DNA of 64,000 nucleotides. Origin: a bacterium. GTDB taxonomy: Bacteria; UBA8248. Below, piece by piece: positions 4,208 to 47,428 of the stretch (positions are counted from its first letter, which is position 1; the number at the start of each line of letters is the position of its first letter). The notes beneath the pieces are model-generated. The model worked only from the letters and a program-made list of their open reading frames with translations, did not search any database and was not told where the DNA came from. The stretch is taken from NCBI GenBank assembly GCA_965203325.1, contig OZ241875.1:2242702-2306701 (forward strand), read 5' to 3'. Both the position numbers and the translations under genes were made by a program.

Positions 4208-4311
4208 GGCGCGCGAGGGATGGAGACCCGGACGGAGGATGCGGAATCCGACCCGGCCGTCGCGGGTCAATCGCGACCGAAGAGGGGCCGGTGAAAAAGT
4301 CTGGCATGCGA

Positions 4312-4500
4312 CCCCTACGAAGATCGCTCTCCACCGAGGAAAATTTCAAATCAACTCCCCCCTTGAGGGGGAGTCGAAGAGGCCGAGCCTTGGCGAAGGC
4401 CGATTCGGTGGGGGGAGGTTTTTATCTGTGGCTTGTCCCCCCACCGATTCGGTTTCGGGTTTACACCCTCACCTCATCGACTCCCCCTCAAGGGGGGAGT
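4312..4500. repeat. Family-A complex palindromic element (REP/MITE-like), copy 1
   Basis: Nested inverted repeats: outer AACTCCCCCCTTGAGGGGGAGTCG / CGACTCCCCCTCAAGGGGGGAGT and inner CCGATTCGGTGGGGGGAG / CTCCCCCCACCGATTCGG. The same architecture recurs at 13364, 19011 and 40236. Confidence 0.8.
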
Positions 4501-4687
4501 GAAATTTAGCGCTCTCCTTCTGGGACTTTTCACCAGCCCCCTCCTCAGGGGGCATCGTTTTTACCCCCCTGACAAGGGGGGGTAGGGGGGGGTGGTTTTC
4601 CAGTCGAGAGGGGCGCCGCCTCTCCCCGCTCGGGATTGATTAAAAACCCCATCTCGCCATGCTAGAATAATGGGAGCGGCTCTCGCG

Positions 4688-4774: not shown

Positions 4775-4876
4775 GTTCATACGGGCGGGCCTGGAGAAAG
4801 CCTGAGTTTCTCGTAGCCGTTCCATGCGGGCATCGCCGCTCAGCCATTGCCATTCACCGACCCCTTTGCACCGTCC

Positions 4877-4998
4877 GCACGGCACCCCGACCCGCCGCTA
4901 TACTTGCCCGGAACATTTCTGCAAAATAAGACCATGGCATGCAGTCCACCGGAACGGCGACCGATAAGGGCGGTCGAGGAGACCGGATAGCGACATGG
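4877..4998. repeat. Left 122-bp direct repeat (DR-L) bounding the low-GC island
   Basis: ~93% identical to 10759-10880 (gcacggcaccccgacccgccgctatacttgcccggaacatttctgca...gcgacatgg). Confidence 0.85.
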
Positions 4999-5192
4999 GG
5001 ACTCCCAAGTTAGGCAAAGGTGATGACAGGACCATAGTGAACGGCTGGTGCGAGGGCGGGCGCACCGTCCATCAAGTAAGCATTTGATATGGGGGAAACA
5101 CTCCGCCACTACATGAAGACTTCTCGATCAGCCAAGCCAAACAGCTATGTAGGAGATACCTGCTACTTGAAAACTCACACGTCGGAGCGCTT

Positions 5193-6419
5193 ATGATTAG
5201 ACCCCCAGATATAAAGGGACTGGCGCGGCGTTGGCGTCGTGCGCCGCGACGATGGGGCCACCCTCTACACTCTTTGTGCTCGTACTTCGCCATGTTTCCG
5301 CCACAGGTTCCGTACGTATTCATTCGATGGCTTACTAAGCCTGGTGATGTCGTCTATGATCCGTTTGCCGGACGCGGCACTACACCTATGGAGGCATGCC
5401 GGATGGGACGCGTTGGCATGGGTTCGGATGCTAATCCCCTGGCGCACCTCCTTACCGCAGGCAAAGTAGACGCTCCAACCACTGATGAGGCACATACTCG
5501 CTTGAGAGTCTTGCGTGAGAATTGTGTCCCGGAGTGCCCGAGTTCAGCCCCTGCTGACATCCAGATGCTCTACTCAGGCCGAGTCCTCGGGCAGCTCATA
5601 TGGTTGCGAAATGCACTTAAAGTTAGCCAGCGTGATGACCGATTCCTAATGGCACTTCTCTTAGGGGTGATGCATGCCAACTATAGGCCCGGTGGACCGG
5701 TACACGGCTTGTCGATCAGTATGCCGAACACATTTTCGATGTCGGCGGGATATGTCCGGCGATATATTGAGGAGCATAGGCTCGTACCACCCGATGTTGA
5801 CGTCTTCGATCTTCTCGATTGGAAGCTGGGCAGGATGAGCTTGCCTGAGGCTACGGCAACGCGAGGCACCGCTTGGCAGCAGGACGCACGCAACCCCATG
5901 GCCACGACAATTTGCGACCGGCCTGCGAAGCTCGTGTTCACATCTCCCCCTTACCTTAGCGTCATCAAGTATGGGAAATACAACTGGGTGCGACTCTGGA
6001 TGCTCAAGCAAGAACCGGAAGTGGTTGATCGAGCACTCGTCGCGACTGGGTCTCTGCCGAAATACCTGCAGTTCATCAGTGCCGTCTTGACGCAGATGGC
6101 CTCAGCGATTCGGGAGGATGGATACCTCTGTCTGATGATCGGCGACGTTTATGATCGTTGCAAGGGAAAAACTACGAACCTCGCTGCCCAGGTCTGGGAG
6201 GAAGCTGCGCAACCACTTGGTTGGCGCCTTCATGGCATTGTTACTGACCGACTTCCAACTAAACACAAAGTCAGTCGAATTTGGAAGCAAAGGCGTGGGG
6301 AAGCGACGAAGACGGACCGTGTACTTATATTATCCCGCCCTGGAAACAACCTTACTCAGCTGCCTCCTCTTAGCCCTATACGGTGGGAGCCAGCTTCCGA
6401 GTGGGCTGCAGGAGGATAG
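5193..6419 (+). CDS. DNA methyltransferase (N6-adenine/N4-cytosine, PF01555-like, motif I then IV order)
   Basis: Motif I/X context FPPQVPYVFIRWLTKPGDVVYDPFAGRGTT, and motif IV TSPPY further C-terminal. Confidence 0.85.
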   Translation: MIRPPDIKGLARRWRRAPRRWGHPLHSLCSYFAMFPPQVPYVFIRWLTKPGDVVYDPFAGRGTTPMEACRMGRVGMGSDANPLAHLLTAGKVDAPTTDEAHTRLRVLRENCVPECPSSAPADIQMLYSGRVLGQLIWLRNALKVSQRDDRFLMALLLGVMHANYRPGGPVHGLSISMPNTFSMSAGYVRRYIEEHRLVPPDVDVFDLLDWKLGRMSLPEATATRGTAWQQDARNPMATTICDRPAKLVFTSPPYLSVIKYGKYNWVRLWMLKQEPEVVDRALVATGSLPKYLQFISAVLTQMASAIREDGYLCLMIGDVYDRCKGKTTNLAAQVWEEAAQPLGWRLHGIVTDRLPTKHKVSRIWKQRRGEATKTDRVLILSRPGNNLTQLPPLSPIRWEPASEWAAGG

Positions 6420-6424
6420 AAGTA

Positions 6425-8383
6425 ATGTTGATCAACGAGAGACTTAGGAACTTGGCGACAATAAATGTCTTCGAGGATGTCGCGATTGAGAACTCGTTTA
6501 TCGGGCGACCATTCTACTTCGACTTTAACAAGATGAAGATCTTGTCGAACGACCACTGGAAGGAAATGGTGGGTGGGGTCCCGGCTGGGGCTTTTCTTGC
6601 TGCACTATTCGACAACGACACGGAACATCCAGAGGTCGTACTTCTTCGTGTCCTTGGGCCAACTGCGCTTCCAACTGATTCAGATGTCGTCGCTGCAATG
6701 GTGGATCACTACAAGGAGAGTGAAGGAACGGAGACGGACTCGGGAACGCTCGACAGCTATACTAGGTACGAGTTTCAGTTCTCAGGCCTAGAGTGTAGAG
6801 TGCTCGGTTCTTTTTATCAGAATGCACAAGGCAATACATGCTTCGGGGCTGATGTCGACAACTTCTACGGCCCCAACAACTACTCGGTCTACAAACCTTC
6901 CGGTAACGTTTTGGAGTACCTAGTGAATTTCCGTGAAGGCGACGGACTTCCCGGAGGACCTGGAGATCAAAGAATCGGTGAAATCCGCTACTCGTCAAGC
7001 CAGCGGCACACTCAGGATGCTTCTGTCCCTCTGTATGTGTCGGCCCTTGACTACTTAGGAAAACGCACAGCGCTCTTCGGAATGAAGCGTACAGGAAAAT
7101 CCAATACCGTCAAAAAGATCATTCAGGCAACTGTAAACTTGGGATCAGCGGGAATTGAGCATGAGGGTGAGCAGCTTGTCCCAATAGGGCAGATCATTTT
7201 CGATGTAGACGGTGAATATGCCAATGCGAATCTACAAGACGAAGGAACCGCGGTTTTTGAGCTTTTTGAGAACGAGACCATCCGATACTCCACCCACCCA
7301 AAAGAAGGCTTCCGTGTGCTCAAGGTGAACTTCTACAACGAGGTTGATCTGGGATTCGAGCTCATATCCAGTGATCCGAGAGTCGCGGACGACACAACGA
7401 GATTTGTGTCGAACTTTAGAAGCGTAGAACTGACGCAGCCTGACCAAGAGAACGTGTCTGAGATAAGGCGCTGGGAGCGACGTAGGGCTGTGTATTTTTG
7501 CATTCTGCACGAGGCAGGTTTCGCTGCGCCTCAGACTTTCCAGGTTCGCTTTTCGGCTAATGCTGAAGTTCGAAACGCTGTGGCTCTTAACTTCGAGGCA
7601 GACCGTAGGGGATATATGCGCCTCACTCTGCAGCAAGCCTCCGCATGGTGGCAACGTTTTTGGGAAGTGTATGCCGCCGACCCCAACGGTTGCTTTGCAC
7701 AATACAAACGCGACCACGATAGCCGACCTTGGGCTGAAGATGATCTTGAGGCCCTGCTCACAATGCTCACAAGACGGCGCACGTCCGGAGGGGCAGTCGA
7801 CTGCAGCGGTTTTCGTGTCTTGCGGGAGATCGCCGAAAAACACACATCGACACTACAGACTTCATTTGAGGATGACATCCTTCAGCAGTTACGTGAGGGG
7901 AGAATCGTAATTGTTGATCTCTCGCTCGGAGATGACATCACGAAGCGTTTCTTCTCCGAGAGAGTATGCCGTCGTATATTCGATGATGCAATGCTCCGCT
8001 TCACTCAGATGCAGACACAAAACTTCATTCAGATGTATTTTGAAGAAGCGCACAATTTATTTCCGAGGAAAGAATCTGCCGACCTAACCCAGATCTACAA
8101 TCGTATTGCAAAGGAGGGTGCGAAGCTCCGACTTGGACTCGTCTACGCCACCCAGGAAGTTAGCTCGATATCAGCGAACGTTCTCAAAAACACACAGAAC
8201 TGGTTCGTGTCGCACCTTAACAATCAAGATGAGCTTCGCGAGATAGCTAAATATTACGACTTCGAGGACTTCGTGGATAGCCTTCGACGAACGACCGACA
8301 AAGGGTTCATTCGAATGAAGACGTACTCCAACGCGTTCATTGTACCCGTGCAGATCGACCGGTTCACAGTGGCGGAGACATAA
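6425..8383 (+). CDS. HerA/DUF87-like P-loop ATPase (FtsK-HerA superfamily) with a ~200-aa N-terminal domain of unknown function
   Basis: Walker A GMKRTGKSNT, Walker B-like IVIVDLS plus EEAHNLFP (DEAH-like), and the HerA C-terminal motif KLRLGLVYATQEVSS...NTQNWFVSHLNNQDE. The start is probably ATG 6425 after GGAGGA; the track starts at 6383. Confidence 0.65.
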   Translation: MLINERLRNLATINVFEDVAIENSFIGRPFYFDFNKMKILSNDHWKEMVGGVPAGAFLAALFDNDTEHPEVVLLRVLGPTALPTDSDVVAAMVDHYKESEGTETDSGTLDSYTRYEFQFSGLECRVLGSFYQNAQGNTCFGADVDNFYGPNNYSVYKPSGNVLEYLVNFREGDGLPGGPGDQRIGEIRYSSSQRHTQDASVPLYVSALDYLGKRTALFGMKRTGKSNTVKKIIQATVNLGSAGIEHEGEQLVPIGQIIFDVDGEYANANLQDEGTAVFELFENETIRYSTHPKEGFRVLKVNFYNEVDLGFELISSDPRVADDTTRFVSNFRSVELTQPDQENVSEIRRWERRRAVYFCILHEAGFAAPQTFQVRFSANAEVRNAVALNFEADRRGYMRLTLQQASAWWQRFWEVYAADPNGCFAQYKRDHDSRPWAEDDLEALLTMLTRRRTSGGAVDCSGFRVLREIAEKHTSTLQTSFEDDILQQLREGRIVIVDLSLGDDITKRFFSERVCRRIFDDAMLRFTQMQTQNFIQMYFEEAHNLFPRKESADLTQIYNRIAKEGAKLRLGLVYATQEVSSISANVLKNTQNWFVSHLNNQDELREIAKYYDFEDFVDSLRRTTDKGFIRMKTYSNAFIVPVQIDRFTVAET

Positions 8384-8386
8384 CTT

Positions 8387-9733
8387 ATGGGATATGGCTC
8401 CAAGGGACGAAAGCCTATAGAGCGCGCCAGTAAGATTGCGCACGCAGAGATTATCAAAAACCCGGAAGTCCAAGCTTATATGAGAGAATGTATAGTCCCA
8501 TCTGCGCCTGGCGTGGAGTCACTCGACTCTATGATTGAGACGCTCGGCGAAGTGGATACCTCAGAAGTGACTGCGGTCGTCGCTGTGGATGGTGGCTACA
8601 CAGAGACCTATGTGCGTGAGGAGTATCCTTCGGCCTCCATTACGTTTTTCACATTCGGTCCCCTATTGTTTGAACTTGCTGACCTCCGCGCATTGGACAA
8701 AAAGAGGTTCATTGCGCCAGAAGAGCTCGCTCGCCTTAAGAGAATCGAGCGCTACACCCTTGTGTTGCCGACGAAGGGTATTCGGCGTCAGGACCAACAG
8801 TCCCTGTCAGCCACGATCCGGCGCACTGTATACGAGTTCTTCACAAAGCCACGTGGGGAAGACGATAATCTCATGGTCAGCCTCAAGTGGTTTCTATTCA
8901 GGCGTTGGAAGCGGAATCCAGACAATGGTCTAGTTCAGATTGTTGAGCACTGTCCATCAGATTGCGGTCACGGAGCAACGAGTTTCCTTTTTGAGGAGCA
9001 GACTGAGAAAAGCTGTCCTAAGTGCGGGCGACCAGTTTATCTTACGGATGTCTTCCGGCTGCAAGAGCGGATCGATGAGGAGCTAGGTGCGGGAGGAATC
9101 AGTGCCTATGTAATGACAATGCTGGAACAACTAGTTCTCATACACCTGTTCTACAACATAATAGAGCGCCTCAAGCCCAGCCTGATGCGGAGCATCTTAT
9201 TCATCAAGGATGGACCATTGGCCTTTTTCGGTCTGGTTGCTCCGCTGTGTCGGCCCATGCGGGAGCTCGTGCAGCACCTACTCAGCGAGCCCGGAGGACA
9301 AATGGGGCCAACGCTCAGGCTCGCCGGATTAGAGAAGAGTGGAGCATTTGTCGAACACGCTGCAGCGATCCAGGACCTTATGGAGCCTAACTCCTACATG
9401 ATTGTTAATGATGGCTATATCCGGCGACATATCGTGCCAGGAGAGGTCGGCGTGGTGTATGGACAAAACACATACTACGGCCAAAAAGTGTTGTTCCGGG
9501 CACCGGGTGGGGAGATGCACGTCGTGACGATCCCGGCCCAAAGCTATATGGCAGATCCGAATCCCTCGGAAATGCCCCACCTCGAAGATGTGCTGACACT
9601 CATCGCCGAGCTTCGATGCAGTATGCACGATAATTCGTTGATTCCTGTTGCATTGGCAAACAAACTCGTCTCGCTTTCTGACTTCCCGAGCCAGCGCATC
9701 CTAACGACTTTCGCGAGAGAGAACATCCAGTGA
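8387..9733 (+). CDS. NurA-like / RNase H-fold putative nuclease with internal zinc ribbon (partner of the upstream ATPase)
   Basis: AVDGG near the N-terminus (NurA motif I is xDGS), a CPSDC...CPKCG zinc ribbon, and acidic motifs IKDGPL and IVNDGY. It is translationally coupled to the upstream gene (4-nt gap). Confidence 0.4.
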   Translation: MGYGSKGRKPIERASKIAHAEIIKNPEVQAYMRECIVPSAPGVESLDSMIETLGEVDTSEVTAVVAVDGGYTETYVREEYPSASITFFTFGPLLFELADLRALDKKRFIAPEELARLKRIERYTLVLPTKGIRRQDQQSLSATIRRTVYEFFTKPRGEDDNLMVSLKWFLFRRWKRNPDNGLVQIVEHCPSDCGHGATSFLFEEQTEKSCPKCGRPVYLTDVFRLQERIDEELGAGGISAYVMTMLEQLVLIHLFYNIIERLKPSLMRSILFIKDGPLAFFGLVAPLCRPMRELVQHLLSEPGGQMGPTLRLAGLEKSGAFVEHAAAIQDLMEPNSYMIVNDGYIRRHIVPGEVGVVYGQNTYYGQKVLFRAPGGEMHVVTIPAQSYMADPNPSEMPHLEDVLTLIAELRCSMHDNSLIPVALANKLVSLSDFPSQRILTTFARENIQ

Positions 9734-9848
9734 ACTAGCCCTGCACTTTCCAACTTCTAGAGTTCTATGGGTCTTGTTTCTTTAATGCAATGGATATTTA
9801 GACTATTGAGTTTGAAAGAGTTTCCGGGACGGAGACAAATTTCGCGAT

Positions 9849-10451
9849 TTGATCGAGGTAGAAAGTGTGGCTAAAAAAAATACTACTGGGCTTGACAAGG
9901 TTCCAAAGCGTTTGTTTTTAGACTCTTCTGTTTTGCAAGTACTTCTAACCTATGGTGAGTTCATCTACGATGGAGGAACAATACCTTCTCAAGCTCGCAT
10001 CTGGTCGATTCCCAAAGGGCTAGAGAATTTAGATGCTCTTAAACAGATCATGTTTGTAGGTAACCGTGCTTTGTTTGAGTTTGCACTGTCCTCTCAAAGT
10101 CTAGAAGAAGTAGCGCAACGGAAGGATGCAAAATATATGGACTGGGCAAGAGATGTCCTCGTGTATTGGAGAAATAAATTGGCTAGTTACGATGAGGTTG
10201 GTATTCCAGCGTTTAGTGGGTATGGCAGCAAAGTTGCCACGAAGCTTGAATCTAAAAAATTCGGTTACCTGAGCAATAAAGATAAGGCATTGTTGGTAGA
10301 TGCCCTGAAGCTAGAATGTGAGGCCTTCATCACGATGGACCGTAGACTTGTCCGGAACACATTCCACCTAGAAGCCCATGTTGCGATTAAAGTTTTAGAG
10401 CCAATAAAATTCTGGGGCCTTTTGCAACCTTGGGCGCCGCTATTTGTTTAA
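9849..10451 (+). CDS. PIN-like domain protein (putative)
   Basis: RLFLDSSVLQVLL (β1 Asp), a conserved Glu, and EAFITMDRRL (T-x-D). This is the lowest-GC gene of the island. Confidence 0.35.
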   Translation: MIEVESVAKKNTTGLDKVPKRLFLDSSVLQVLLTYGEFIYDGGTIPSQARIWSIPKGLENLDALKQIMFVGNRALFEFALSSQSLEEVAQRKDAKYMDWARDVLVYWRNKLASYDEVGIPAFSGYGSKVATKLESKKFGYLSNKDKALLVDALKLECEAFITMDRRLVRNTFHLEAHVAIKVLEPIKFWGLLQPWAPLFV

Positions 10452-10758
10452 ATTGCTGAAGCGAATCACGCTAAACTGTGGGAAAAGAGCCCTGTATGGC
10501 AGCGCACTATGGGCTGAGGAACATCCAAACTTTCAGATTTATCAGCAAGGAGGCCAAGAGAGCGGACACGGGCACCGGATACCGATACTCAAATCGGGAG
10601 CGAGCGATTAGATATCCATCGAACTCTCTTCAATCAACGTAGTGGAAAACAAGCCCTCGTAACGAGAGATTAGGGAACGGATCACAGGAATCTCTAAAGC
10701 CTTTGACCTGAACGATTCTCCATATCCCCTCATCGACACCATCAATACCGATCCATCA

Positions 10759-10880
10759 GCACGGCACCCCGACCCGCCGCTATACTTGCCCGGAACATTT
10801 CTGCACAATAAGACCATGGCATGCAGTCCACCGGGACGGCGACCGACGGGTGCGGTCGAGGGGACCGGAAAGCGACATGG
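10759..10880. repeat. Right 122-bp direct repeat (DR-R) of the island
   Basis: Matches 4877-4998. Confidence 0.85.
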
Positions 10881-13306
10881 CGATTGCCGGACGGGAAAAG
10901 GAACGCGGGGCGAAGGGCCAATGCGAGGGCGCGAACGGCGTTCATCCGCGCCGCCGCCTCGTGAATGGGGGGCGCGGCGGCGGCGCCTTCACGCTGAGCC
11001 GGGCCTCCGCTTGCGCCGTCCTCCTTTGCGCGATGCTCATTCTCACGAACTGCGGCGGGGGCGGCTCGGGAGCGCGCCCCCAAGCCGCGGTGACGCCCGA
11101 AACCCCGCAGCCGCAACCACCCCCGCCAGAGCCAGTGCAGCCGCCGCAACAACCGCAGCCGTCGCCGCAACAACCGCAGCCGCAGGAATGCGTTCCGCTC
11201 CAAGACGGGACCTGCCCCTCGGTCGACGATTTCAACAGCCGGGCGCGGCGGCTCGCCGGCACATACGCCGTACACCGGAATTTCAGGAACCAGCCGAGTC
11301 TCGCGGCAATCGGCGCAGACCGAGCCTACGCCCACGTCCACCTGCTCGAGGGCGCGGGCGCCGCGCCGGGCGAGGGCGTGACCATCGGCTTCATCGACAG
11401 CGGCATCGATACCGCACACCGGATGTTCGCGGGAAAGTCGGTTGACGAGGTGTTCATCAGCGGCGCCTCGAACGAGACGGGCGCCAGGTTCTCCCACGGC
11501 ACGGCCGTCGCGAGCGTCGCCGCCGGAATCCGGGATCACACCATCGCCCGCGGCCCGCACGGCGTCGCCTGGGGCGCCGACATCGCCATGTTCGCCATTC
11601 CCTTACAAAGCCCGGACGGCCCCTACAACCCCGTCTCTCTCACCAGTTCGGGAGGCGCAGACGACTCGTGGGCGTCGCGGCTCGACCGGGTCCTGGCGTG
11701 GCGAAACGGCCCGAGGCGCGCCGACATCCTGAACCTGAGCATCGGCTATCAGGGCATCATCGACGACTACGACGAGGACGACCTCCGCGCCAGCTTCGAG
11801 CGGACGATCGCCGCGATGGCGCAGGCGGGAGCCATTGATAAGGCGGTTTTCGTCTGGGCGGCCGGCAACGCCCACGGAAGGGAATGCGCTTCGTCGGTGG
11901 CCCACTGCGAGAACGGAAAAATCAACGCCGTTTCGCCCGAGGTGCTGGCGGGCCTCGCCGCGCGGGTCGAGGAACTCCGGGGACATACGGTCACCGTCGC
12001 GGCGCTGGGGCCGGGCGGAACCATCGCGGACTTCTCCAACCGCTGCGGCATCGCGGCGGACTATTGCATCGCGGCGCCCGGAGAAGACGTCCGGGTCGCC
12101 TGGTTCGGACCCCATCCCGACACGTCCGCGCCCATCCGGGGCGTCGGGAGGAGCAGCGGAACATCCGTCGCCGCGCCGATGGTGTCCGGCGGGCTCGCCA
12201 TCATGAAGCAACTCTTCCGGGACCAGCTCTCGAACACCGAACTGGTGACGCGCCTCTTCGAGACCGCCGACGACACCGGCGCCTACGCGAACAGGGCCGT
12301 TTACGGCCGGGGAAAACTCGACTTGGCCGCCGCCACGCACCCCGTGGGCGTCCCGGCGGTCCCCGTCGCCGGGAACGCGAACGGGGCCGGGAGCAATCTG
12401 CGCGCCACGAGCCTGCGTCTCGGGGCGCCGTTCGGGAACGGCCTCACGCGGTCGGTCGGGGACCACGAAATCATGGCGCTCGACGATCTGGGCGCGCCGT
12501 TCTGGTACCGGCTGGGCGATTTCGTGACGACGGCGAAGGTCCCGGCGATGGACGCAAGGGTCAGGCGCTTTCTGGCGGGCGGGACGCTAGGGGTCAGCGC
12601 GCAGGAGACCACGGCGGAAGCCGGCGGCGGCCACCTCTCGCTCGCCGAGGGGGGGATGACGGCGACGTTCACCGGCCGGGCGGGCCTTTCCGCCTCGGTG
12701 TTCGGGACGAACCACGAGCACGACGTGGCGGGCGGGACACTCGGCTGGCGGCCGGAAGGCGCCCCGCTCGGCCTGCGCGTCGGGTGGATAAGCGAGGGCG
12801 GAACCATCCTCGGCGGCGAGGGCCGGGGGGCCTTCGGGTCGCTGGCGGCGGACACCGCCTTCATCCGCCTCGAGGGAGACGTGAGGCTCGGCGCGTGGCG
12901 TCTCGGAGCGGATGCGGAATGGGGGAGCGCGCGCGCCCGGGCCCGGGGCGGGCTCATCGAGGAGGTATCGCCGATCTCGACCAGCGCGTTCGCGCTGCAC
13001 GCACGCGCCGCCGTGACGGATACGGACACCGTGCGGCTCGCCCTCTCACAGCCCCTGCGCGTCGAGGACGGCCAAGCGTCGCTGACTCTCCCTGCTGCGC
13101 GGACCAAATTGGGGCGGGTGCTGCGCACGTCCCTCACCTCGCCGCTCGCGCCCGAGGCGCGCCAGATCGACCTGGCCGCCACCTGGGAGAGGCCGCTGGC
13201 GGAGGGGCGGCTGCGCCTCGGCGTCGTCTGGAGCCAAAACCCCGGCCACAGCGCCTCCGCCAAGCCCCGGCTCACGTTTCTCGCCGGCTGGCAAAGGGCG
13301 TTCTGA
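10877..13306 (+). CDS. S8 subtilisin-family serine protease, lipoprotein with C-terminal beta-barrel (NalP/SphB1-like autotransporter)
   Basis: Catalytic triad motifs DSGID, HGTAV, GTSVAAP; lipobox LILTNC; Pro/Gln-rich linker; C-terminal ...AGWQRAF. The start is uncertain: ATG 10877 (inside DR-R) or GTG 10961. Confidence 0.85.
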   Translation: MAIAGREKERGAKGQCEGANGVHPRRRLVNGGRGGGAFTLSRASACAVLLCAMLILTNCGGGGSGARPQAAVTPETPQPQPPPPEPVQPPQQPQPSPQQPQPQECVPLQDGTCPSVDDFNSRARRLAGTYAVHRNFRNQPSLAAIGADRAYAHVHLLEGAGAAPGEGVTIGFIDSGIDTAHRMFAGKSVDEVFISGASNETGARFSHGTAVASVAAGIRDHTIARGPHGVAWGADIAMFAIPLQSPDGPYNPVSLTSSGGADDSWASRLDRVLAWRNGPRRADILNLSIGYQGIIDDYDEDDLRASFERTIAAMAQAGAIDKAVFVWAAGNAHGRECASSVAHCENGKINAVSPEVLAGLAARVEELRGHTVTVAALGPGGTIADFSNRCGIAADYCIAAPGEDVRVAWFGPHPDTSAPIRGVGRSSGTSVAAPMVSGGLAIMKQLFRDQLSNTELVTRLFETADDTGAYANRAVYGRGKLDLAAATHPVGVPAVPVAGNANGAGSNLRATSLRLGAPFGNGLTRSVGDHEIMALDDLGAPFWYRLGDFVTTAKVPAMDARVRRFLAGGTLGVSAQETTAEAGGGHLSLAEGGMTATFTGRAGLSASVFGTNHEHDVAGGTLGWRPEGAPLGLRVGWISEGGTILGGEGRGAFGSLAADTAFIRLEGDVRLGAWRLGADAEWGSARARARGGLIEEVSPISTSAFALHARAAVTDTDTVRLALSQPLRVEDGQASLTLPAARTKLGRVLRTSLTSPLAPEARQIDLAATWERPLAEGRLRLGVVWSQNPGHSASAKPRLTFLAGWQRAF

Positions 13307-13363: not shown

Positions 13364-13538
13364 CCCCCCCTACCCCCCCTTGAGGGGGTCGGGCTTCCCG
13401 AGGGGAAAGCCCGACAGAGGCCGAGTCCTTTGGACGAAGGCCGATGTGGTGGGGGGACATGCCACAGAAAAACTCCCCCCACCGAATCGCTTTCGGGCTT
13501 ACGCCCTTAGCTCTTCGACTCCCCCTCAAGGGGGGAGT
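13364..13538. repeat. Family-A palindromic element copy 2 (its left end is a family-B arm CCCCCCCTACCCCCCCC)
   Basis: Same nested inverted-repeat architecture as 4312-4500. Confidence 0.75.
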
Positions 13539-13675
13539 TTATTCATAATCTTATGTCGATTGGGAAATCCATTCTCTGTTTGTGGCAGGGCTTCTCCAAC
13601 AACCCCTCGCGGGGCCGATTTCTCCTGCGCAGGATAGCCGCCGCCCCGTCTTATGATATAGAATGGCGGCCCTCG

Positions 13676-19010: not shown

Positions 19011-19162
19011 CTTCACTCCCCCTTTGAGGGGGAGTCGATGAAGCCGAGCGATTTGTGCGAAGGCTGAATCGGTGGGGGGACGATTCTAAAATAAAAGCTC
19101 CCCCCACCGACTCGCTTGCGGGCTTCGCCCTTACCTCGTCGACTCCCCCTCAAGGGGGGAGT
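19011..19162. repeat. Family-A palindromic element copy 3
   Basis: CACTCCCCCTTTGAGGGGGAGTCG ... CGACTCCCCCTCAAGGGGGGAGT with inner CGGTGGGGGG/CCCCCCACCG. Confidence 0.75.
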
Positions 19163-19417
19163 TGATTCGTTTTTTGTGGGCTTTTTCAACAACCCCCTTC
19201 AACAAGGGATTCTCCCGTAGTAGGACAGGTCGCGACCTGTCCCTCTACACAACCGCAATCGCTCCCTCATCGTCCAGAATCGGTTCTAAAGAGAAATGCT
19301 GCGGGCATCGCCAATTCACGCGGAATGGGGTTACAATGGATTTTTAGTCATCTGGTCGCAAATTCCCCCGGCGCAAGTCTTCTGTTCGTCGCCGAACAAG
19401 GAAAGGCCGCCGTACGC

Positions 19418-21131: not shown

Positions 21132-21271
21132 CCCCCCCTACCCCCCCTTGTCAGGGGTCAAACGCGAGTGATGAACGAGCGTTTGCATAAGCCATTGACG
21201 AGAAACACATCGTCTTGCAAAACCTCCCTCTTCGGTCGGTTTTGACCCCTGACAAGGGGGGGTAGGGGGGG
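21132..21271. repeat. Family-B MITE-like element: terminal inverted repeats CCCCCCCTACCCCCCCTTGTCAGGGG / CCCCTGACAAGGGGGGGTAGGGGGGG around an 88-bp core with an internal hairpin
   Basis: Direct reading; related arms occur at 4565-4592, 26953-27117 and 37459-37482. Confidence 0.8.
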
Positions 21272-21320
21272 TTGGTTCTCAAGGCGAGAGCCTGCGCCGC
21301 CGCCCGGTTTCGGGTTTGAC

Positions 21321-26952: not shown

Positions 26953-27117
26953 CCCCCCTACCCCCCCTTGTCAGGGGGGTATAAAAAGGCGATGCGCCCC
27001 ACCGGTCTGAGGGGGCTTTGATTTTCTTGCCCCCTGACAATAAGGGGACAGAGGTCGCCGGGTGGAGCAGCTGAGGGGGTTTTGATCTTGCCCCCCTGAC
27101 AAGGGGGGTAGGGGGGG
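26953..27117. repeat. Family-B MITE-like element with TIRs and two internal direct repeats GAGGGGG(C)TTTGAT(T)TTCTTGCCCCCTGACAA
   Basis: Direct reading. Confidence 0.8.
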
Positions 27118-30108: not shown

Positions 30109-30522
30109 TTACCCCTCCCCGCTCAGCTCGTCCAGTTTGCTCTCGAGCCGGTCGATGACCTCGGCGGCGTCGGATGCCGCGTTGTAGTCCTGCGCGAGGT
30201 CGCCGTCGCCGCAGGGACTTTTCACGACGAAGAACACGGACTTCTCACCGATGGTGCGCCCGCCGTGGCGCGTGTTCCGGGGGATGTGGACGAGGTCGCC
30301 CGGCTCGACAACCCGCTCCTCATCGCCCACGATCACGAAGCGCTTCCCCTCCAGGACGAGGTAGAACTGCTCCTCGTTGGGGTGGTAGTGCGGCGTCGCG
30401 CCCTCGCCTTTCAGGTACGTCACAATACCCACCTTCATCAGTTCGCCGGGCACCGTCTTGGCGGTCGCGGGCGATATCGCGGCGCGGACCTCTTCCATCT
30501 CGGAAATCTTGTAGAACGGCAT
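30109..30522 (-). CDS. Cupin domain protein (paralog 1)
   Basis: HYHPNEEQFYLVLEG...GDLVHIP. Confidence 0.75.
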   Translation of the reverse strand: MPFYKISEMEEVRAAISPATAKTVPGELMKVGIVTYLKGEGATPHYHPNEEQFYLVLEGKRFVIVGDEERVVEPGDLVHIPRNTRHGGRTIGEKSVFFVVKSPCGDGDLAQDYNAASDAAEVIDRLESKLDELSGEG

Positions 30523-30533
30523 GATTTTCTCCT

Positions 30534-30938
30534 TTAGGTGTATTCGCTGAGTTTTTCTTGCAGGCGGCGGACGATCTCCTCGGCGTCCTCCGCGTCGTGG
30601 TGATCCTGATCGAGCCGTCCGTCGCCGGCGGGACTCTTGGCGGTGAACATGCGCACCTCGTCGATGATGACGCCGCCGTGCTTCGCCCCCCGCGGGATGT
30701 GGACGAGGTCGCCCGCGACGATCAGTCCCTCCTCATCGCCCACGATCATCCACTGCCTGCCTTCGAGGATGAAGAGGAACTGCTCCTCGTTCGGGTGGTA
30801 GTGGGGTCTCGACATCTTGCCCTTGGGATAGGTGACGAAGCCCACCTTCACCAACTCCCCCGCCAGCCCCTTGAAGCGGCCCATGGGCTGTGCGGCCACA
30901 TGCGATTCAACCATCTCGGATGCTCTGTAAAACGGCAT
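30534..30938 (-). CDS. Cupin domain protein (paralog 2)
   Basis: HYHPNEEQFLFILEG...GDLVHIP; tandem duplicate of the neighbour. Confidence 0.75.
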   Translation of the reverse strand: MPFYRASEMVESHVAAQPMGRFKGLAGELVKVGFVTYPKGKMSRPHYHPNEEQFLFILEGRQWMIVGDEEGLIVAGDLVHIPRGAKHGGVIIDEVRMFTAKSPAGDGRLDQDHHDAEDAEEIVRRLQEKLSEYT

Positions 30939-40044: not shown

Positions 40045-40235
40045 GCGATACCTCCGAATGCGGCCAGGCCCGAAAGACGAGCGTCTCTACTGCTCTGATT
40101 ATCCCAATATCGGGAGTCCAAGTCCATTGCGAGGCAGGGATGGCGGATGGCGTGCGCATCCAAGGGTCCGGCGGTTTCTGTACGCAGCCCCTGAATTCCC
40201 TCATTGCGGGGTTGTTGAATAAGCCGGTATACGGC

Positions 40236-40446
40236 CCCTACGAAGATCGCTCTTCACTAATGAGAATATCAAATCAACTCCCCCCTTGAGGGGGAGTCGA
40301 GGAAGCCGAGCGGTTTGTGCGAAGGCTGACTCGGTGGGGGGAGCTTTACTCTGTGGCATGTCCCCCCACCGATTCGGTTTCGGGTTGACACCCTCACCTC
40401 ATCGTCTGGCTTTCCCCTCGGGAAGCCAGACCCTCAAGGGGGGAGT
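40236..40446. repeat. Family-A palindromic element copy 4 (with an extra nested hairpin TCTGGCTTTCCCCTCGGGAAGCCAGA)
   Basis: Same outer and inner inverted repeats as copy 1; the shared 5' extension CCCCTACGAAGATCGCTC. Confidence 0.8.
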
Positions 40447-43068: not shown

Positions 43069-44376
43069 ATGACTACGTTCCCGCAAAGCGGCCCCGCCAA
43101 AAAACCGAAATTCTACTACGGCTGGCTCATCGTCTGGCTCTCTTTCTTCACGCTGGGCTTCCACGTCGTCACGCGGTTTTCCTTCGGCATCTTCCAGGTT
43201 CCCCTGCTCGAGGAATTCGGCTGGAGCCGGGGTCTCCTGAGCGGGGCGTTCTCGCTCTCGATGGCCACCTACGCCTTGGGCGCGCCGTTCGCCGGCTCGC
43301 TACTTGAGAAAAAAGGCCCGCGCGCCATCATGCCGTGGGGTTCGGTGATACTGGGCCTCACGTTCATCTCGTGCTACTTCGTCTCCTCGCTCTGGCACCT
43401 CTACATCCTCTTCGGGCTCTTCGCCGGCTACGGCCTCTCGTTGAGCGGCTTCTCCACGCACAGCGCCATCATGCCCCGCTGGTTCGTGAAGAAAAGAGGC
43501 CGCGCCACGGGAATCGCGCTATCGGGCATCGGAATCGGCATCCTCGTCCTGGCGCCTCTCATCGAGCGCCTCATCGCGTCCGTCGGCTGGCGCTACACGT
43601 ATGTGATCTTCGGCCTGATCATTCTGTGCGTCGTCTCTCCCGCGAGCTTTCTCCTGCTGCGCGACGTGCCGGAAGACGTCGGGCAGGGGCCGGACGGCGG
43701 CCCGCCGCGCACCCCCGAGGAGCTGACGAGAGCCGGCGTCGGCCACGGCGGCGAGGGCAAGGGCGTGTGGGAGGTCTTCTCGGCCGTGAGGCGCGACATC
43801 CGGTTTTGGTGCCTCATCCTGATGGTCTTCGCCATCGGGCTCAACAACAACACCATCATGAGCCAGTTGCAGCTCTATCTCGTCGACGTGGGATACGGCA
43901 CCGCCCTTGCGGCCCTCATCTTCGGCTCCGTCGGCTTCATCCGGACGTTCGGCAGCATCGGCGGCGGATGGGTGGGCGACCTCATCGGGCGGGGGCGCGG
44001 CGTGGCGCTCGCGGCCGTGGTGGTGGCGGCGGGCCTGACGCTGCTCATCCTCATCCCCCATTTCGGCGGGGGCATCCTGCCGGGCTACGCCTTTGCACTC
44101 GTGTACGGAATCGGCATCGGCGCCATGAGCGCGTGCTATTCCGCCCTGGCGGGGGATTGCTTCGGGGGCCGCACATACGGCGTCATCATCGGCTTCATGG
44201 AGATCTGCTACGGGCTGGGAGGCGTCGTCGGCGCGCCATTCGCGGGGTTCATGTTCGATTACACGAAAAGCTACTTCATTCCCTTCCTGACGATCATCTT
44301 CTTCATGTTCGTCTCGTTAACCCTCGCGCTCTGGCTGCAGGCCTACATGAAAAAACACGGCCTCGAACCAAGGTAG
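43069..44376 (+). CDS. MFS transporter
   Basis: 12 TM, MFS loop motifs; the 3' end is duplicated at 46418-46473. Confidence 0.85.
   Translation: MTTFPQSGPAKKPKFYYGWLIVWLSFFTLGFHVVTRFSFGIFQVPLLEEFGWSRGLLSGAFSLSMATYALGAPFAGSLLEKKGPRAIMPWGSVILGLTFISCYFVSSLWHLYILFGLFAGYGLSLSGFSTHSAIMPRWFVKKRGRATGIALSGIGIGILVLAPLIERLIASVGWRYTYVIFGLIILCVVSPASFLLLRDVPEDVGQGPDGGPPRTPEELTRAGVGHGGEGKGVWEVFSAVRRDIRFWCLILMVFAIGLNNNTIMSQLQLYLVDVGYGTALAALIFGSVGFIRTFGSIGGGWVGDLIGRGRGVALAAVVVAAGLTLLILIPHFGGGILPGYAFALVYGIGIGAMSACYSALAGDCFGGRTYGVIIGFMEICYGLGGVVGAPFAGFMFDYTKSYFIPFLTIIFFMFVSLTLALWLQAYMKKHGLEPR
44321..44376. repeat. Left 56-bp direct repeat (native 3' end of the MFS gene)
   Basis: 52/56 identical to 46418-46473. 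Confidence 0.85.
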
Positions 44377-44466
44377 TAATTGCCATCTTTTGCTGGCCGT
44401 ATCAGATATATTATTGCTTTGTCGCTATTCACTAATTCACAGCATATAAAACTTGACATATATAAT

Positions 44467-44505
44467 AACCTTATGTATACGTCCTTAGGACGTATACATA
44501 AGGTT
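44467..44505 (+). promoter_or_regulatory. 39-bp palindrome AACCTTATGTATACGTCCT-T-AGGACGTATACATAAGGTT (putative AbiEi operator 1)
   Basis: Direct reading; shares the core ACGTCCTNAGGACGT with 44565-44599. Confidence 0.5.
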
Positions 44506-44564
44506 ATATTTTATTTTCGAAAATGGCTTTTTTAGTTGCGGAGTGCCGTGACTTTAATATATTT

Positions 44565-44599
44565 AACATGATAAACGTCCTAAGGACGTTTATCATGTT
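44565..44599 (+). promoter_or_regulatory. 35-bp palindrome AACATGATAAACGTCCT-A-AGGACGTTTATCATGTT (putative operator 2)
   Basis: Direct reading; lies 33 bp upstream of the abiEi ATG. Confidence 0.5.
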
Positions 44600-44631
44600 A
44601 AATTTTCTAATTCTATATAAGACATGAGATA

Positions 44632-45540
44632 ATGGCGGTATACTCTCCGGGAGCATATAAAGGAAAACCGACCCGAGCCACCAGCTACCTGGCAGGCTTG
44701 CTCGAAGAAAACGACAAGCCGGTTCTGACCCAGCTCGATTTTTTGCAAATCATTCGCCAAATGTACCGAGAATCACCCGACAAGAAACTATATCTGCGCC
44801 ACGATACTCCTGGCCGGGCAGACTGCTTTCGTCTCAGGTCAAACTTGAATAGGCAAGGCGTAATCGGGCCCGATCGGGATTATGGCGCGCGCATCATCAG
44901 GGTGTTGGCCGTTTCGGACCTTCCGGCTGAAGGCATCGTCTGCCTCGTCGATCCGACATGCTACATTTCCCACCTCTCCGCTATGCAGCGGTGGGGACTC
45001 ACCGACCGAAGACCGGATGCCCTGATGCTGACGCGCCCGGATCGCAAGACCGCCATGATCCACTTAAAAGCACACACGTCGAAAATTCTGGGAACAGGAG
45101 AAACCAATCTCTTCCCGCTGAAGATCGTCGGTCATCCCGCTCGTGTCCGAAGGCGGGCCGTCCACGTTCATGAAAGCAAAACCGCAGGGGCGTTTTTGAA
45201 GAACCGGGGGGATGGAGTGTCTCTCTCGACTATCGGACAAACTTTCCTCGACATGCTTCAAAGGCCCGATCTTTGCGGGGGGATGTCTCATGTTCTCGAT
45301 ATTTGGGAAGAACACGCTAAAACCTATTTCAGCGAAATTGTCACATCGGTCGGGACCGCCAAAATCGGGATCGTCAAAAGCCGGGCCGGCTACATCCTTG
45401 AAGAACGGTTAGGGTTGCATCACCGCGAAATAGAGCGCTGGCAATCATGCGCTCAGCGCGGCGGTAGTCGCAAGCTCGATCCGGCCAAGGCCTTTGCGCC
45501 GACCTATTCAGAAAAATGGATGATTTCCCTCAATGCCTGA
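44632..45540 (+). CDS. AbiEi-family antitoxin / transcriptional regulator (type IV TA)
   Basis: CYISHLSAMQRWGLTD resembles the AbiEi/COG5340 YhSxxSAL..hGL core; it overlaps the downstream gene by 8 nt. Confidence 0.65.
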   Translation: MAVYSPGAYKGKPTRATSYLAGLLEENDKPVLTQLDFLQIIRQMYRESPDKKLYLRHDTPGRADCFRLRSNLNRQGVIGPDRDYGARIIRVLAVSDLPAEGIVCLVDPTCYISHLSAMQRWGLTDRRPDALMLTRPDRKTAMIHLKAHTSKILGTGETNLFPLKIVGHPARVRRRAVHVHESKTAGAFLKNRGDGVSLSTIGQTFLDMLQRPDLCGGMSHVLDIWEEHAKTYFSEIVTSVGTAKIGIVKSRAGYILEERLGLHHREIERWQSCAQRGGSRKLDPAKAFAPTYSEKWMISLNA

Positions 45541-46414
45541 ACCCAATCTTAAAATTGACGTTGCCAGGTGGGTCGAAAATGCGAAGGCCGACCCGGTCGC
45601 CTACCAGCAACGCCAGACGGTGGAAATAGTCCTCAACGCCATAGCGATGACGGTCCCCCTTAACGCAAAGATGTTCCTGAAAGGCGGCATTCTCATGGGT
45701 CTCGCCTATGACAGCCCAAGGCAAACGACCGACATCGATATGTCGACAAACCTTATGGCCCGAAGCGAAACCGCAGACAGGGTCAAAACGCTACTGGATT
45801 CAGCTTTCCCTCGCGCGGCCGCAGCGCTGGGTTATGCCGACCTCGTCCTTAAAACTCACTCGGCAAAAAAGATGCCTAAGAAAACAATCTTTGAAACAGC
45901 GGATTTCCCCGCCCTAAAACTCAAAATCGCTTATGCGCGCCGAAGGACAAAACAAGAAATGAGGCTTTTGGAGGGCAAAGTTTCTGAGGTGATTGACCTA
46001 GATATTTCATTCAACGAAACCTTGCAACATATCCAAGTATTAGAACTAACCGGTGGACAGGAGCTGCAAGCTTATGGCCTCGTCGATCTCATCGCCGAAA
46101 AATATCGCGCTATGCTTCAACAAGTGCCACGAAGGCGTAACCGGCGACAAGATGTCTACGATCTCGATTTGCTGCTTAGAATGCATCGGATCGATGACAT
46201 TCTCCGCACGCAAATCCTGGATGTTTTCATTGCGAAATGCCGGTCGCGCCGTATAGAGCCGACACGTTCGTCCCTAGACGACCCCGAGGTCAAAACAAGG
46301 TCTCGCGCAGAGTGGCAAACGATGAAATTGGAGTTAGGCGAAGTGCCGGATTTTGAGCGCTGTTTCGCCCGCATCTCGGAATTTTATCGGAACCTGCCTT
46401 GGAAACCAGAATGA
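45533..46414 (+). CDS. AbiEii/AbiGii-family nucleotidyltransferase toxin (DUF1814)
   Basis: FLKGGILMGLAYDSPRQTTDIDMS matches lKGGtAL...R.S.DIDf. Confidence 0.7.
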   Translation: MPEPNLKIDVARWVENAKADPVAYQQRQTVEIVLNAIAMTVPLNAKMFLKGGILMGLAYDSPRQTTDIDMSTNLMARSETADRVKTLLDSAFPRAAAALGYADLVLKTHSAKKMPKKTIFETADFPALKLKIAYARRRTKQEMRLLEGKVSEVIDLDISFNETLQHIQVLELTGGQELQAYGLVDLIAEKYRAMLQQVPRRRNRRQDVYDLDLLLRMHRIDDILRTQILDVFIAKCRSRRIEPTRSSLDDPEVKTRSRAEWQTMKLELGEVPDFERCFARISEFYRNLPWKPE

Positions 46415-46479
46415 TAGCCCTCGCGCACTGGCTGCAGGCCTACATGAAAAAACACGGCCTGGAGCCGAGGTAGGGGCCG

Positions 46480-47349
46480 TTATTTCAGGTTTTCGAGATA
46501 CCGCTTCACCTCGTAGCGTTCGGTGAGTTCGATAAACTTCTGCCGCATCGCCTCCTGCCTGTTGCGCTCGCCCATCTCCTTGGTGATTTTCTCCGCCACT
46601 TCCGAGAAATCGAGTTGCTTGGCCCCCTCCTTCTTGGAGGTTTTCACGACGTGCCAGCCGTAGATGCTCTGCACGACACCACTGTGCGCGCCCGGATCGA
46701 GAGAAAACGCCGTCTGCTCGATTATCCCGGGCAGGCCCGTCCTCTTGCTGTGGCCCCGGCTCATCTCGCCCAGGCTCCCGCCGAGCGCGCGCTCGGGCGC
46801 CAGGGAATACTTCTTCGCCAGTTCGGCGAAATCCTCTCCCCCGGCGATCTTCGCCAGCAGATCCTTCGCCTCTTTCTCGGACGAGACCATGATGTGGGCC
46901 GCGGTGACCTTGCCCCCCTCCGTGTATTTCACCTTGTTGCGCTCATACTCCGCGCGAATATCGGACGCCTTGGGCCGCGCGCCCTCCTCGATCCTGCGGA
47001 GCGCCTCGCCGATCAATATCTCGCGCCGCGCGCGCTCGATCTGCATCTTCACCCGCTCGGTGCCCAGAAAATTACTCTCATCCGCATGCCGAAGCATGAG
47101 TCTGCGCTGAATGAGGGCTTCCAGGAACGCCGCCTTGTTCGCATCCGCCTGGGCCTGCATGTTGGCGGGCAACTGGTGGATGAAGGCGTTGAATGCCCCG
47201 AGCGTTATCGGCATTCCTCCGACGTGCGCGACGATGCTCTCCTCAGCCGCCTTCGAGCCGCTCTTGGGCGCGGCGAACGCTGAGACGCCGAGAGCGAGAA
47301 AGGCCGCAAGGGTGAGCGCTGCAATTTTTGTGACGTGTGGACGCGTCAT
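46480..47349 (-). CDS. PpiC-type (parvulin) peptidyl-prolyl isomerase, SurA/PrsA-like
   Basis: Signal peptide plus a parvulin domain (GGSLGEMSRG...GWHVVK). Confidence 0.8.
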   Translation of the reverse strand: MTRPHVTKIAALTLAAFLALGVSAFAAPKSGSKAAEESIVAHVGGMPITLGAFNAFIHQLPANMQAQADANKAAFLEALIQRRLMLRHADESNFLGTERVKMQIERARREILIGEALRRIEEGARPKASDIRAEYERNKVKYTEGGKVTAAHIMVSSEKEAKDLLAKIAGGEDFAELAKKYSLAPERALGGSLGEMSRGHSKRTGLPGIIEQTAFSLDPGAHSGVVQSIYGWHVVKTSKKEGAKQLDFSEVAEKITKEMGERNRQEAMRQKFIELTERYEVKRYLENLK

Positions 47350-47428
47350 GACGTGTCTCCTGAAAATATGGCAGGCAAATGAGGAAAGGGAGATCATACA
47401 ACAAATCGCTCGGGGCTGCCTTGCGCCC

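Follow-up and report, generated by a model that had tools for sequence, protein, structure and literature searches.

Organisation of the AbiE locus

A stretch of 64,000 nucleotides from contig OZ241875.1 (positions 2,242,702 to 2,306,701), referred to here as the window, carried a small predicted AbiE cassette between a major facilitator superfamily (MFS) transporter gene and a convergent gene for a SurA-like peptidyl-prolyl isomerase (PPIase) in an uncultured Nitrospinota clade of metagenome-assembled genomes. The cassette was flanked by a direct repeat of the 3' end of the MFS gene, and this boundary belongs to the class described as 'insertion with long target duplication', probably made by host recombination rather than by an integrase encoded by the element. 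Coordinates of the locus are positions in the window, and L-numbers denote loci of related metagenome-assembled genomes or contigs. The following features were located.

43069-44376, plus strand: MFS transporter gene, intact, 435 amino acids (PF07690, 1.2e-49), the last 59 nt of which are the left repeat copy
44318-44376, plus strand: left repeat copy, the functional MFS 3' end (...LTLALWLQAYMKKHGLEPR*), from the repeat search
44377-44631, plus strand: AT-rich abiE leader, GC 0.30, a predicted promoter/operator region alignable with the leader of every AbiE locus at the MFS/PPIase site
44458-44514, no strand: palindrome 1, predicted operator with core ACGTCCTTAGGACGT, from the repeat search
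44554-44610, no strand: palindrome 2, predicted operator with core ACGTCCTAAGGACGT, ending 21 nt before the abiEi start codon
44632-45540, plus strand: abiEi, predicted antitoxin and autorepressor, 302 amino acids (PADLOC AbiEi, 1.6e-96, full length)
45533-46414, plus strand: abiEii, DUF1814 nucleotidyltransferase and predicted toxin, 293 amino acids (PF08843, 2.4e-28; PADLOC AbiEii, 2.6e-105)
46415-46473, plus strand: right repeat copy, a non-coding relic of the MFS tail that starts 1 nt after the abiEii stop
46480-47397, minus strand: SurA-like PPIase gene, convergent, the right border of the hotspot (PF13145, PF00639, PF13616), adjoining the MFS gene in relatives too

The two repeat copies were 59 nt long and identical at 54 of 59 positions with a longest identical run of 33 nt, so that the 56-bp duplication (52/56) noted in an earlier sequence-only reading of this DNA was real, lay inside them and had been slightly too short. 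Direct repeats of at least 35 nt fell into 11 families in the window, mostly GC-rich elements resembling repetitive extragenic palindromes (REP-like), and only two of the 11 bracketed low-GC islands, one being the repeat around the AbiE cassette. Because there were just these 11 families, most of them REP-like, the repeat was considered not to be a chance match. Similarity between the copies ended exactly at the ends of the insert and the repeat was therefore not part of a larger segmental duplication, the alternative that the sequence-only reading had raised against itself.

The insert between the copies (44377-46414) was 2,038 bp long with a GC content of 0.50, and the GC content of its leader (0.30) compared with 0.61-0.64 in the MFS gene, the PPIase gene and the flanks. 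It was self-contained, consisting of the leader with two palindromes, abiEi and abiEii. The list of open reading frames (ORFs) held no integrase or transposase within the insert, in agreement with what was first noted, and the repeat search of the window found no terminal inverted repeats pairing the cassette ends. The left copy was the true end of the intact MFS gene, so the duplication had indeed preserved the MFS C-terminus, while the right copy ended 6 nt before the PPIase stop codon, which is the exact position of the MFS stop in relatives with an empty site. The best NCBIfam matches of the MFS protein were L-lactate and oxalate/formate MFS families, all under their cut-offs, and orthologues with 80-100% identity were present in at least 25 Nitrospinota loci.

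The abiEi and abiEii genes

The two genes were located on the same strand with the antitoxin gene first and an 8-nt overlap, and this pairing was kept in homologous loci. AbiEii scored 100 bits against PF08843 (cut-off 22.5), covering profile positions 3-237 of 238, and contained LKGG-x14-DID, in which an Arg precedes DID. This corresponds to motifs I and II of AbiEii, which follow the pattern hG[G/S]-x(~15)-DhD in DUF1814 nucleotidyltransferases (PMC3985639). AbiEi was matched over its full length by PADLOC and reached 18.3 bits against PF09407 (AbiEi_1, the C-terminal domain), under the cut-off of 22.2, while PF13338 was unmatched and no N-terminal AbiEi family of Pfam was found. The profile searches suggested in the sequence-only reading were thus borne out by PF08843 for AbiEii and by PADLOC for AbiEi, and not by either of the two Pfam families named for AbiEi. 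No NCBIfam model matched AbiEi or AbiEii. The CYISHLSAM block, from which abiEi had been recognised, occupied invariant columns in an alignment of 30 sequences.

An exact look-up of the window AbiEi gave no entry, and in total 1555 AbiEi homologues were found. Those on plasmids were annotated as AbiEi family antitoxins and adjoined AbiEii genes, and no AbiEi relatives were found in the phage collection. The AF2 structure model of AbiEi made from 30 sequences was poor (pLDDT 58.6), with residues 10-100 alone modelled confidently and having a winged-helix-like look, and Foldseek gave no significant match with this model. Sequence searches of the PDB with the AbiEi profile and with AbiEii gave no match.

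Identification of the cassette as an AbiE module of the type IV toxin-antitoxin/abortive infection kind is considered sound on these profile and motif matches. The module looked functional, and AbiEi is predicted to act as antitoxin and autorepressor and AbiEii as a GTP-type nucleotidyltransferase toxin. The bicistronic abiEi-abiEii order and the DUF1814 nucleotidyltransferase motifs I and II are shared with AbiE of Streptococcus agalactiae and Lactococcus and with Rv2827c-Rv2826c of Mycobacterium tuberculosis (PMC3985639, PMC7319586). The antitoxin of AbiE systems (AbiEi, COG5340) has two domains, an N-terminal winged helix and a C-terminal AbiEi domain, to which the window AbiEi may conform. 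Unlike those studied systems, the window proteins are remote, with no sequence match in the PDB and an AbiEi_1 score under the cut-off, and are known from sequence only. By its sequence, the module itself is a remote but typical and otherwise ordinary member of the family.

Leader palindromes as predicted AbiEi operators

Both palindromes of the leader had a 23+1+23-nt layout with arms of 23-24 nt around ACGTCCTnAGGACGT. The arms of palindrome 1 measured 28 nt at 89% complementarity in the repeat search and 24 nt by extension allowing 2 mismatches, and as RNA this palindrome had a folding energy of -29.8 kcal/mol (z = -9.5). A TTGACA hexamer (44453-44458) was located just ahead of it. Among 69 distinct leaders taken from AbiEi homologues of 42-100% identity, 63 contained one or two such palindromes, around GTCCTnAGGAC. 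In an Rfam scan of the cassette the palindromes gave nothing but hairpin matches below threshold. The AbiEi operators known so far consist of 23-bp inverted repeats in pairs, of which S. agalactiae has one and M. tuberculosis two, the latter in the Rv2827c promoter (PMC7319586). The two palindromes of the window fit this architecture, as the sequence-only reading had suggested, and differ from the studied operators in that their arms are 1 nt apart and not 3 or 13. The call of the leader palindromes as predicted operators is regarded as sound, and AbiEi would bind two operators that are each a pair of 23-nt inverted repeats.

Across AbiEi homologues with identities as low as 42%, the predicted operators kept an invariant core, GTCCTnAGGAC, and arms of about 23 nt. 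The outermost 15-18 nt of each arm varied from lineage to lineage, and also between palindromes 1 and 2 within a leader, while perfect symmetry was kept. Between the window and L001, where the abiE genes were 99% identical, palindrome 2 differed at four mirrored positions per arm.

The MFS/PPIase junction in related genomes

A neighbourhood of CoA-transferase, deacetylase and MFS genes on one side and PPIase, RsmI and CoA-transferase genes on the other was kept in more than 20 loci, and the junction between its two halves varied. The MFS gene without the insertion, which had been proposed as a check, was found in five loci (L005, L007, L009, L010, L015) as an empty junction with a 6-16-nt spacer and a single copy of the repeat. 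The junction was filled by AbiE in the window and 11 loci (L001, L003, L012, L030, L050-L056), of which L003 was truncated where its contig ended. In L004 and L008 the junction was occupied by a PDC-M48B-type candidate defence gene (PADLOC 2.7e-136) and a putative membrane protein gene. L025 (11309-13050) had two low-GC genes of 304 and 175 amino acids without a Pfam or PADLOC match and, towards the PPIase gene, 24 nt of MFS tail left as a relic (23/24). These two genes may be an unrecognised defence pair that has taken the place of an earlier cassette. A PAP2/vanadium-chloroperoxidase-like gene and an outer-membrane barrel gene at host GC content were found in L011, and inserts similar in size to this cargo in L002, L013 and L028. 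The AbiE cassette and PAP2-type cargo occurred together in L054 and in L056, the right repeat copy of L056 running into the same PAP2-cargo edge. Since the junction was empty, AbiE-filled or held other cargo among relatives, it is a cargo hotspot.

The repeated architecture bears on whether the duplication could be an artefact of assembly or binning, a concern for any sequence from a metagenome-assembled genome. Independent assemblies and samples yielded the same architecture at 12 loci, with lineage-specific sequence and in several cases on megabase contigs, and an artefact is scarcely credible.

All AbiEi homologues with at least 81% identity were located at the MFS/PPIase site in one Nitrospinota clade. 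The next homologues, at no more than 73% identity, belonged to other organisms, often accompanied in their islands by HipA, Fic, TrwC or integrase fragments. The module was probably acquired horizontally.

The PDC-M48B-type cargo (L004 3983-5888, L008 11309-13214) encoded a protein with a metallo-beta-lactamase fold and a 216-amino-acid protein without a family match, and was flanked by a possible 5-nt TAGGG duplication only. In L051 and L053 (7857-8804) a gene with a SIR2_2 domain was located between the PPIase gene and rsmI and was absent from the near-identical L050. This SIR2-like insertion was checked as a third test case and had no flanking direct repeat.

Repeat copies and junctions across lineages

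The left junction lay right after the MFS stop, at (T/C)AATT(G/T)CC, in the window, L001, L003, L012, L030, L050-L053 and L055, this cassette start being mostly deleted in L030. Two loci differed. In L054 the repeat (72/72) took in 15 nt beyond the stop, reaching the PAP2-cargo edge, and met the leader at a shared TTTTC. The L056 repeat (64/65) had its limit about 9 nt past the stop, and about 110 nt of additional sequence came after it. In both of these loci the right junction consisted of GCCCTG joined to GCCCTCG, which resembles the stump of an older repeat.

The copies co-varied by lineage, with identities of 55/55 in L012, 55/56 in L055 and 72/72 in L054, while the L050 copies had drifted to 42/50 and the right copy of L030 had decayed. 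The window right copy matched the functional MFS tail of L002, the nearest relative without AbiE, at 58 of 59 positions, and a neutral relic of clade age should have drifted far more. The window left copy carried four derived changes relative to the tails of relatives, three of which were synonymous third-position changes within 7 nt beside the cassette, as expected if the left copy was imported.

A close pair of filled and empty loci was formed by L050 and L007, which were 97-99% identical over 4 kb on each side up to the repeats. The single tail of L007 was like the left copy over 47/48 nt and then like the right copy over 15/18 nt, and the filled and empty alleles of this pair differ within the repeats alone.

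These junctions were compared with what would be expected if the repeats were attL and attR sites of a non-autonomous or stripped element, carrying a replacement MFS tail and moved by a tyrosine or serine recombinase encoded elsewhere. Such an origin would account for the use of a gene 3' end with restoration of the reading frame, for the 33-nt identical core with differences on both sides, and for the use of the same site across many genomes. It also accords with the left copies, in which the 3' end and stop (mostly TAA next to TAATTGCC) look to be of element type while the right copies keep the host TAG. However, the AbiE loci for which gene calls were obtained had no recombinase gene within or next to the cassette, and just 1-9 nt separated the abiEii stop from the cassette end, too little to accommodate a decayed gene. 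The one other stretch of the window looked at for an integrase, the low-GC stretch at 5.2-10.5 kb, had none. The extent of the repeat ranged from 55 to 72 nt and included lineage-specific downstream sequence in L054 and L056, its 3' limit was at the stop, about 9 nt past it or 15 nt past it so that no fixed att core was apparent, and there was microhomology at a junction. The repeats of two other cases described below (100 and 136 nt) also had no sequence in common with the MFS-tail repeat. An att origin is accordingly rated as distinctly unlikely, and the difference in repeat length by lineage together with the junction microhomology indicates host recombination rather than a fixed att site.

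A dif/Xer-type or integron attC-type site was rejected by inspection, as the repeat was unlike both and the cassette 3' end had no imperfect hairpin.

A second AbiE context and a second island in the window

Flanking repeats were screened in 80 metagenome loci with AbiEi relatives, about 55 of which had usable flanks. Just two contexts showed a long flanking repeat, the MFS context (L056) and another represented by L058, L060 and L090. In the latter the AbiEi protein was 69% identical to that of the window and the host was Rhodospirillales-like (alphaproteobacterial). The neighbourhood included an ABC transporter, and the cassette followed a DUF2141 gene and faced guaA. Its repeat of 100 nt (92%) comprised the last 13 nt of DUF2141 and 87 nt downstream, and of the seven differences between the copies six fell on third positions in the codons of a small ORF. 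Most of the DUF2141 gene was deleted in L060, as was one operator palindrome. No clean empty site was found for this context, the nearest locus being L136 (87%), which lacked the duplicated 87-nt part, with L137 too short. The second low-GC island bracketed by a direct repeat was located in the window itself. The positions of both cases were as follows.

L058 241-347 and 2408-2507: repeat copies of the second AbiE context
L060 3689-3788 and 5810-5909: repeat copies of the second AbiE context
4871-5006 and 10753-10888: repeat copies of the second island, 136 nt, 90% identical
5007-10752: second low-GC island, 5.75 kb, GC 0.51, between tRNA-Ser(tga) and an S8 protease gene

The second island encoded an N6/N4 DNA methylase, a HerA/DUF87 ATPase and two genes of unassigned family, with no integrase. 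L138 provided a clean empty site, in which a single copy of the segment accompanied the tRNA and the protease. The left copy in the window ran on into about 30 nt of protease 5' end of the L139 allele type, while the right copy was of the L138/L140 type, and the two copies therefore came from different parental alleles.

The region between tRNA-Ser and the S8 protease carried DndB, HNH and PAPS-reductase genes beyond the tRNA in L138, a methylase, a TIR protein and a transposase in L139, and an SNF2 helicase with DUF1156, DUF499 and HEPN genes in L140. This differing defence-type cargo makes the region a second hotspot.

With these cases at hand, a transposon-like insertion by a transposase acting in trans, with the repeat as its target-site duplication, can be weighed. 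It would explain a direct target repeat around an insert without movement genes of its own. The duplications varied from 55 to 136 bp, far beyond those of known transposases, the cassette bounds had no terminal inverted repeats and the copies differed in an allele-like manner, all of which make this origin very improbable.

Proposed route of insertion

We favour, as the probable account of the AbiE locus boundary, an insertion with long target duplication made by host recombination. Incoming DNA would have been joined on one side by an illegitimate, microhomology-mediated event and on the other by homologous exchange. If the join points were offset through unequal pairing, for example between sister chromosomes, the stretch between them would be duplicated. 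The duplication would make the insertion silent, as the left copy completes the MFS protein and the right copy would keep the sequence just downstream of the PPIase gene, probably including its terminator. The repeats could then allow precise loss of the cassette and its re-gain from relatives by homologous recombination, giving rise to presence/absence polymorphism.

Several observations weigh against this account. The right junction was at the same place in all lineages, with the abiEii stop, 1-9 nt and then GCCCT(C/G)GCGCTCTGG. Divergence of the cassette DNA was correlated with that of the flanks (r = 0.83) and was 1.5-2 times larger. With a fixed right junction and this co-divergence, much of the pattern could reflect one old event and vertical descent. 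Most AbiE cassettes of the family elsewhere in the 80-locus screen had no flanking repeat, and recurrence at other gene 3' ends, which the sequence-only reading had thought worth a search, was thus limited to the one context with 100-nt repeats, the homologues of at least 81% identity having a single site. In L054 both copies shared two bases absent from L028, its closest cassette-free relative, and neither genome is therefore simply derivable from the other by gain or loss. As to the terminator, the minus strand of the right copy had a terminator-like hairpin and T-run at 46467-46455, directly downstream of the PPIase gene. The hairpin was weak, with a 5-bp stem and a fold z of -1.9; a strong terminator was rejected and the right copy is only weakly suggested to act as one. 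For these uncultured bacteria, we also know of neither a circular or excised form nor any transformation ability.

The co-divergence and the fixed right junction are what would be expected from a single ancient illegitimate insertion in the clade ancestor followed by vertical descent, with the empty genomes as secondary deletions, the repeats kept similar by gene conversion or by selection on the PPIase 3' end, and no mobility. The confinement of homologues of at least 81% identity to one site is also in line with this, as are the decayed right copies of L030 and L050, which resemble old relics, and the tail of L007, which resembles a deletion product. Against one event stand at least three left junctions: one coincides with the stop, another is reached through TTTTC 15 nt beyond it, and a further one lies about 9 nt beyond it and has 110 nt of additional sequence. 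The L054 repeat (72/72) includes the edge of a different cargo, and the two copies change together within lineages at sites where more than eight changes would be expected of a neutral relic. In addition, the AbiE genes were closer than the flanks in two pairs, the window and L001 (1.2% versus 3.0%) and L050 and L053 (0.0% versus 1.4%). A single event with vertical descent is considered unlikely, if still to be reckoned with, and insertion by host recombination remains the favoured account.

The single site of the closest homologues and the correlated divergence indicate a long-resident polymorphic locus and not a freely hopping element. The cassette is an old resident of the clade rather than a recent arrival, and a polymorphic occupant of a defence hotspot. 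The description of the cassette as an integrative element therefore holds in that it is an insertion relative to empty sites with a target duplication, and does not extend to the long residence, the general cargo hotspot and the lack of a fixed att site.

The duplication explains how an insertion into a convergent gap of 6-16 nt leaves both neighbours intact, and repeats of this kind can carry the signature of two parental alleles. How defence and toxin-antitoxin modules without mobility genes enter chromosomes is poorly understood, and the locus offers a well-sampled natural series at one site, spanning empty, filled and differently filled junctions with fresh and decayed repeats. Together with a second island of the same architecture in the window, this series makes the mechanism testable.

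Relation to known insertions and hotspots

Insertion with long target duplication came to light by comparison of Helicobacter pylori genomes (Nobusato et al. 2000, Gene 259:99, as cited in PMC2853133), and the class was extended to type I-IV restriction-modification systems in several phyla by Furuta, Abe and Kobayashi in 2010 (PMC2853133). The mode of mobility of the cassette, described at first as unusual, therefore has a precedent. Membership was defined by an empty site in a relative, an insert below 20 kb without mobility genes, a duplication of more than 30 bp, and homologues of restriction (R) and modification (M) genes (PMC2853133). The AbiE locus has the empty site, the small insert without mobility genes and a duplication of more than 30 bp that is single-copy at empty sites. 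It has no R and M genes and thus works like the class while standing outside its original definition, which was limited to restriction-modification; the second island (5007-10752) does carry a DNA methylase. Some of the published repeats also overlap the 3' end of a gene, such as the 46-bp repeats covering 15 bp of HI0105 (PMC2853133).

Shared with the restriction-modification cases are a small self-contained 'addictive' or defence unit, the absence of an integrase or transposase, variable repeats of more than 30 bp that are single-copy at empty sites, and a mechanism that is still unsolved for the class. The present case differs in that the cargo is an AbiE pair with no DNA-cutting enzyme, in that the host is an uncultured Nitrospinota, and in that many lineages could be compared, showing varied junctions and allele-type differences between copies. 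DNA breakage by the restriction enzyme was suggested as a possible driver of such insertions (PMC2853133). As the AbiE cargo encodes no nuclease, breakage by the cargo is not needed and this idea is weakened, which means that long target duplication is not confined to restriction enzymes and that cleavage of DNA by the cargo is not a required step. A limited literature search, mostly of titles and abstracts, found no prior report of a toxin-antitoxin or Abi module with a long target duplication. The boundary structure belongs to a class that is known but obscure, rarely noted and mechanistically unsolved.

A recombinase-free process in which donor DNA lies at a novel duplication joint is known from transformation in Streptococcus pneumoniae, where interchromatid integration gives tandem duplications of 100-900 kb bordered by insertion sequence (IS) copies (Johnston et al. 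2013, PMC3784515). The route proposed for the AbiE locus would be of the same kind, but on a scale of 60 bp and in Nitrospinota.

Swapping of cargo by homologous recombination in defence-island hotspots, which lie between conserved core genes, is a further parallel. As in those hotspots, one junction with conserved flanks held differing cargos (AbiE, PDC-M48B and unassigned pairs), whereas the AbiE cassette has its own repeat boundary, and it is within the repeats only that the L050 and L007 alleles differ.

Prophage 21 and e14 integrate into the 3' end of icd with an own integrase and a fixed att core, as other integrase-mediated elements do at gene 3' ends, and a copy carried by the element restores the reading frame. 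The AbiE locus resembles them in the insertion into a gene 3' end, the restored frame and copy differences that are mostly synonymous, and differs in that the cassette has no integrase and the extent of the repeat is variable.

It is possible, if doubtful at present, that long target duplication is a general recombinase-free route of entry for any defence cassette. The two copies would then be the donor and recipient alleles of one segment, the structure would form by a homologous join on one side and microhomology on the other, and the repeats would let the cassette leave and re-enter relatives. If true, this would amount to the 'virus-like life cycle' proposed but not documented by Kobayashi's group.

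Other repeats in the window

The GC-rich REP-like elements were intergenic and located at 4303-4610, 13449-13544, 19015-19168, 21224-21290, 27071-27117 and 40226-40407, with internal palindromes such as ACTCCCCCCTTGAGGGGGAGT and CCCCTGACAAGGGGGGG. Two 229-nt segments (30232-30460 and 30645-30873) were 71% identical and 413 nt apart.

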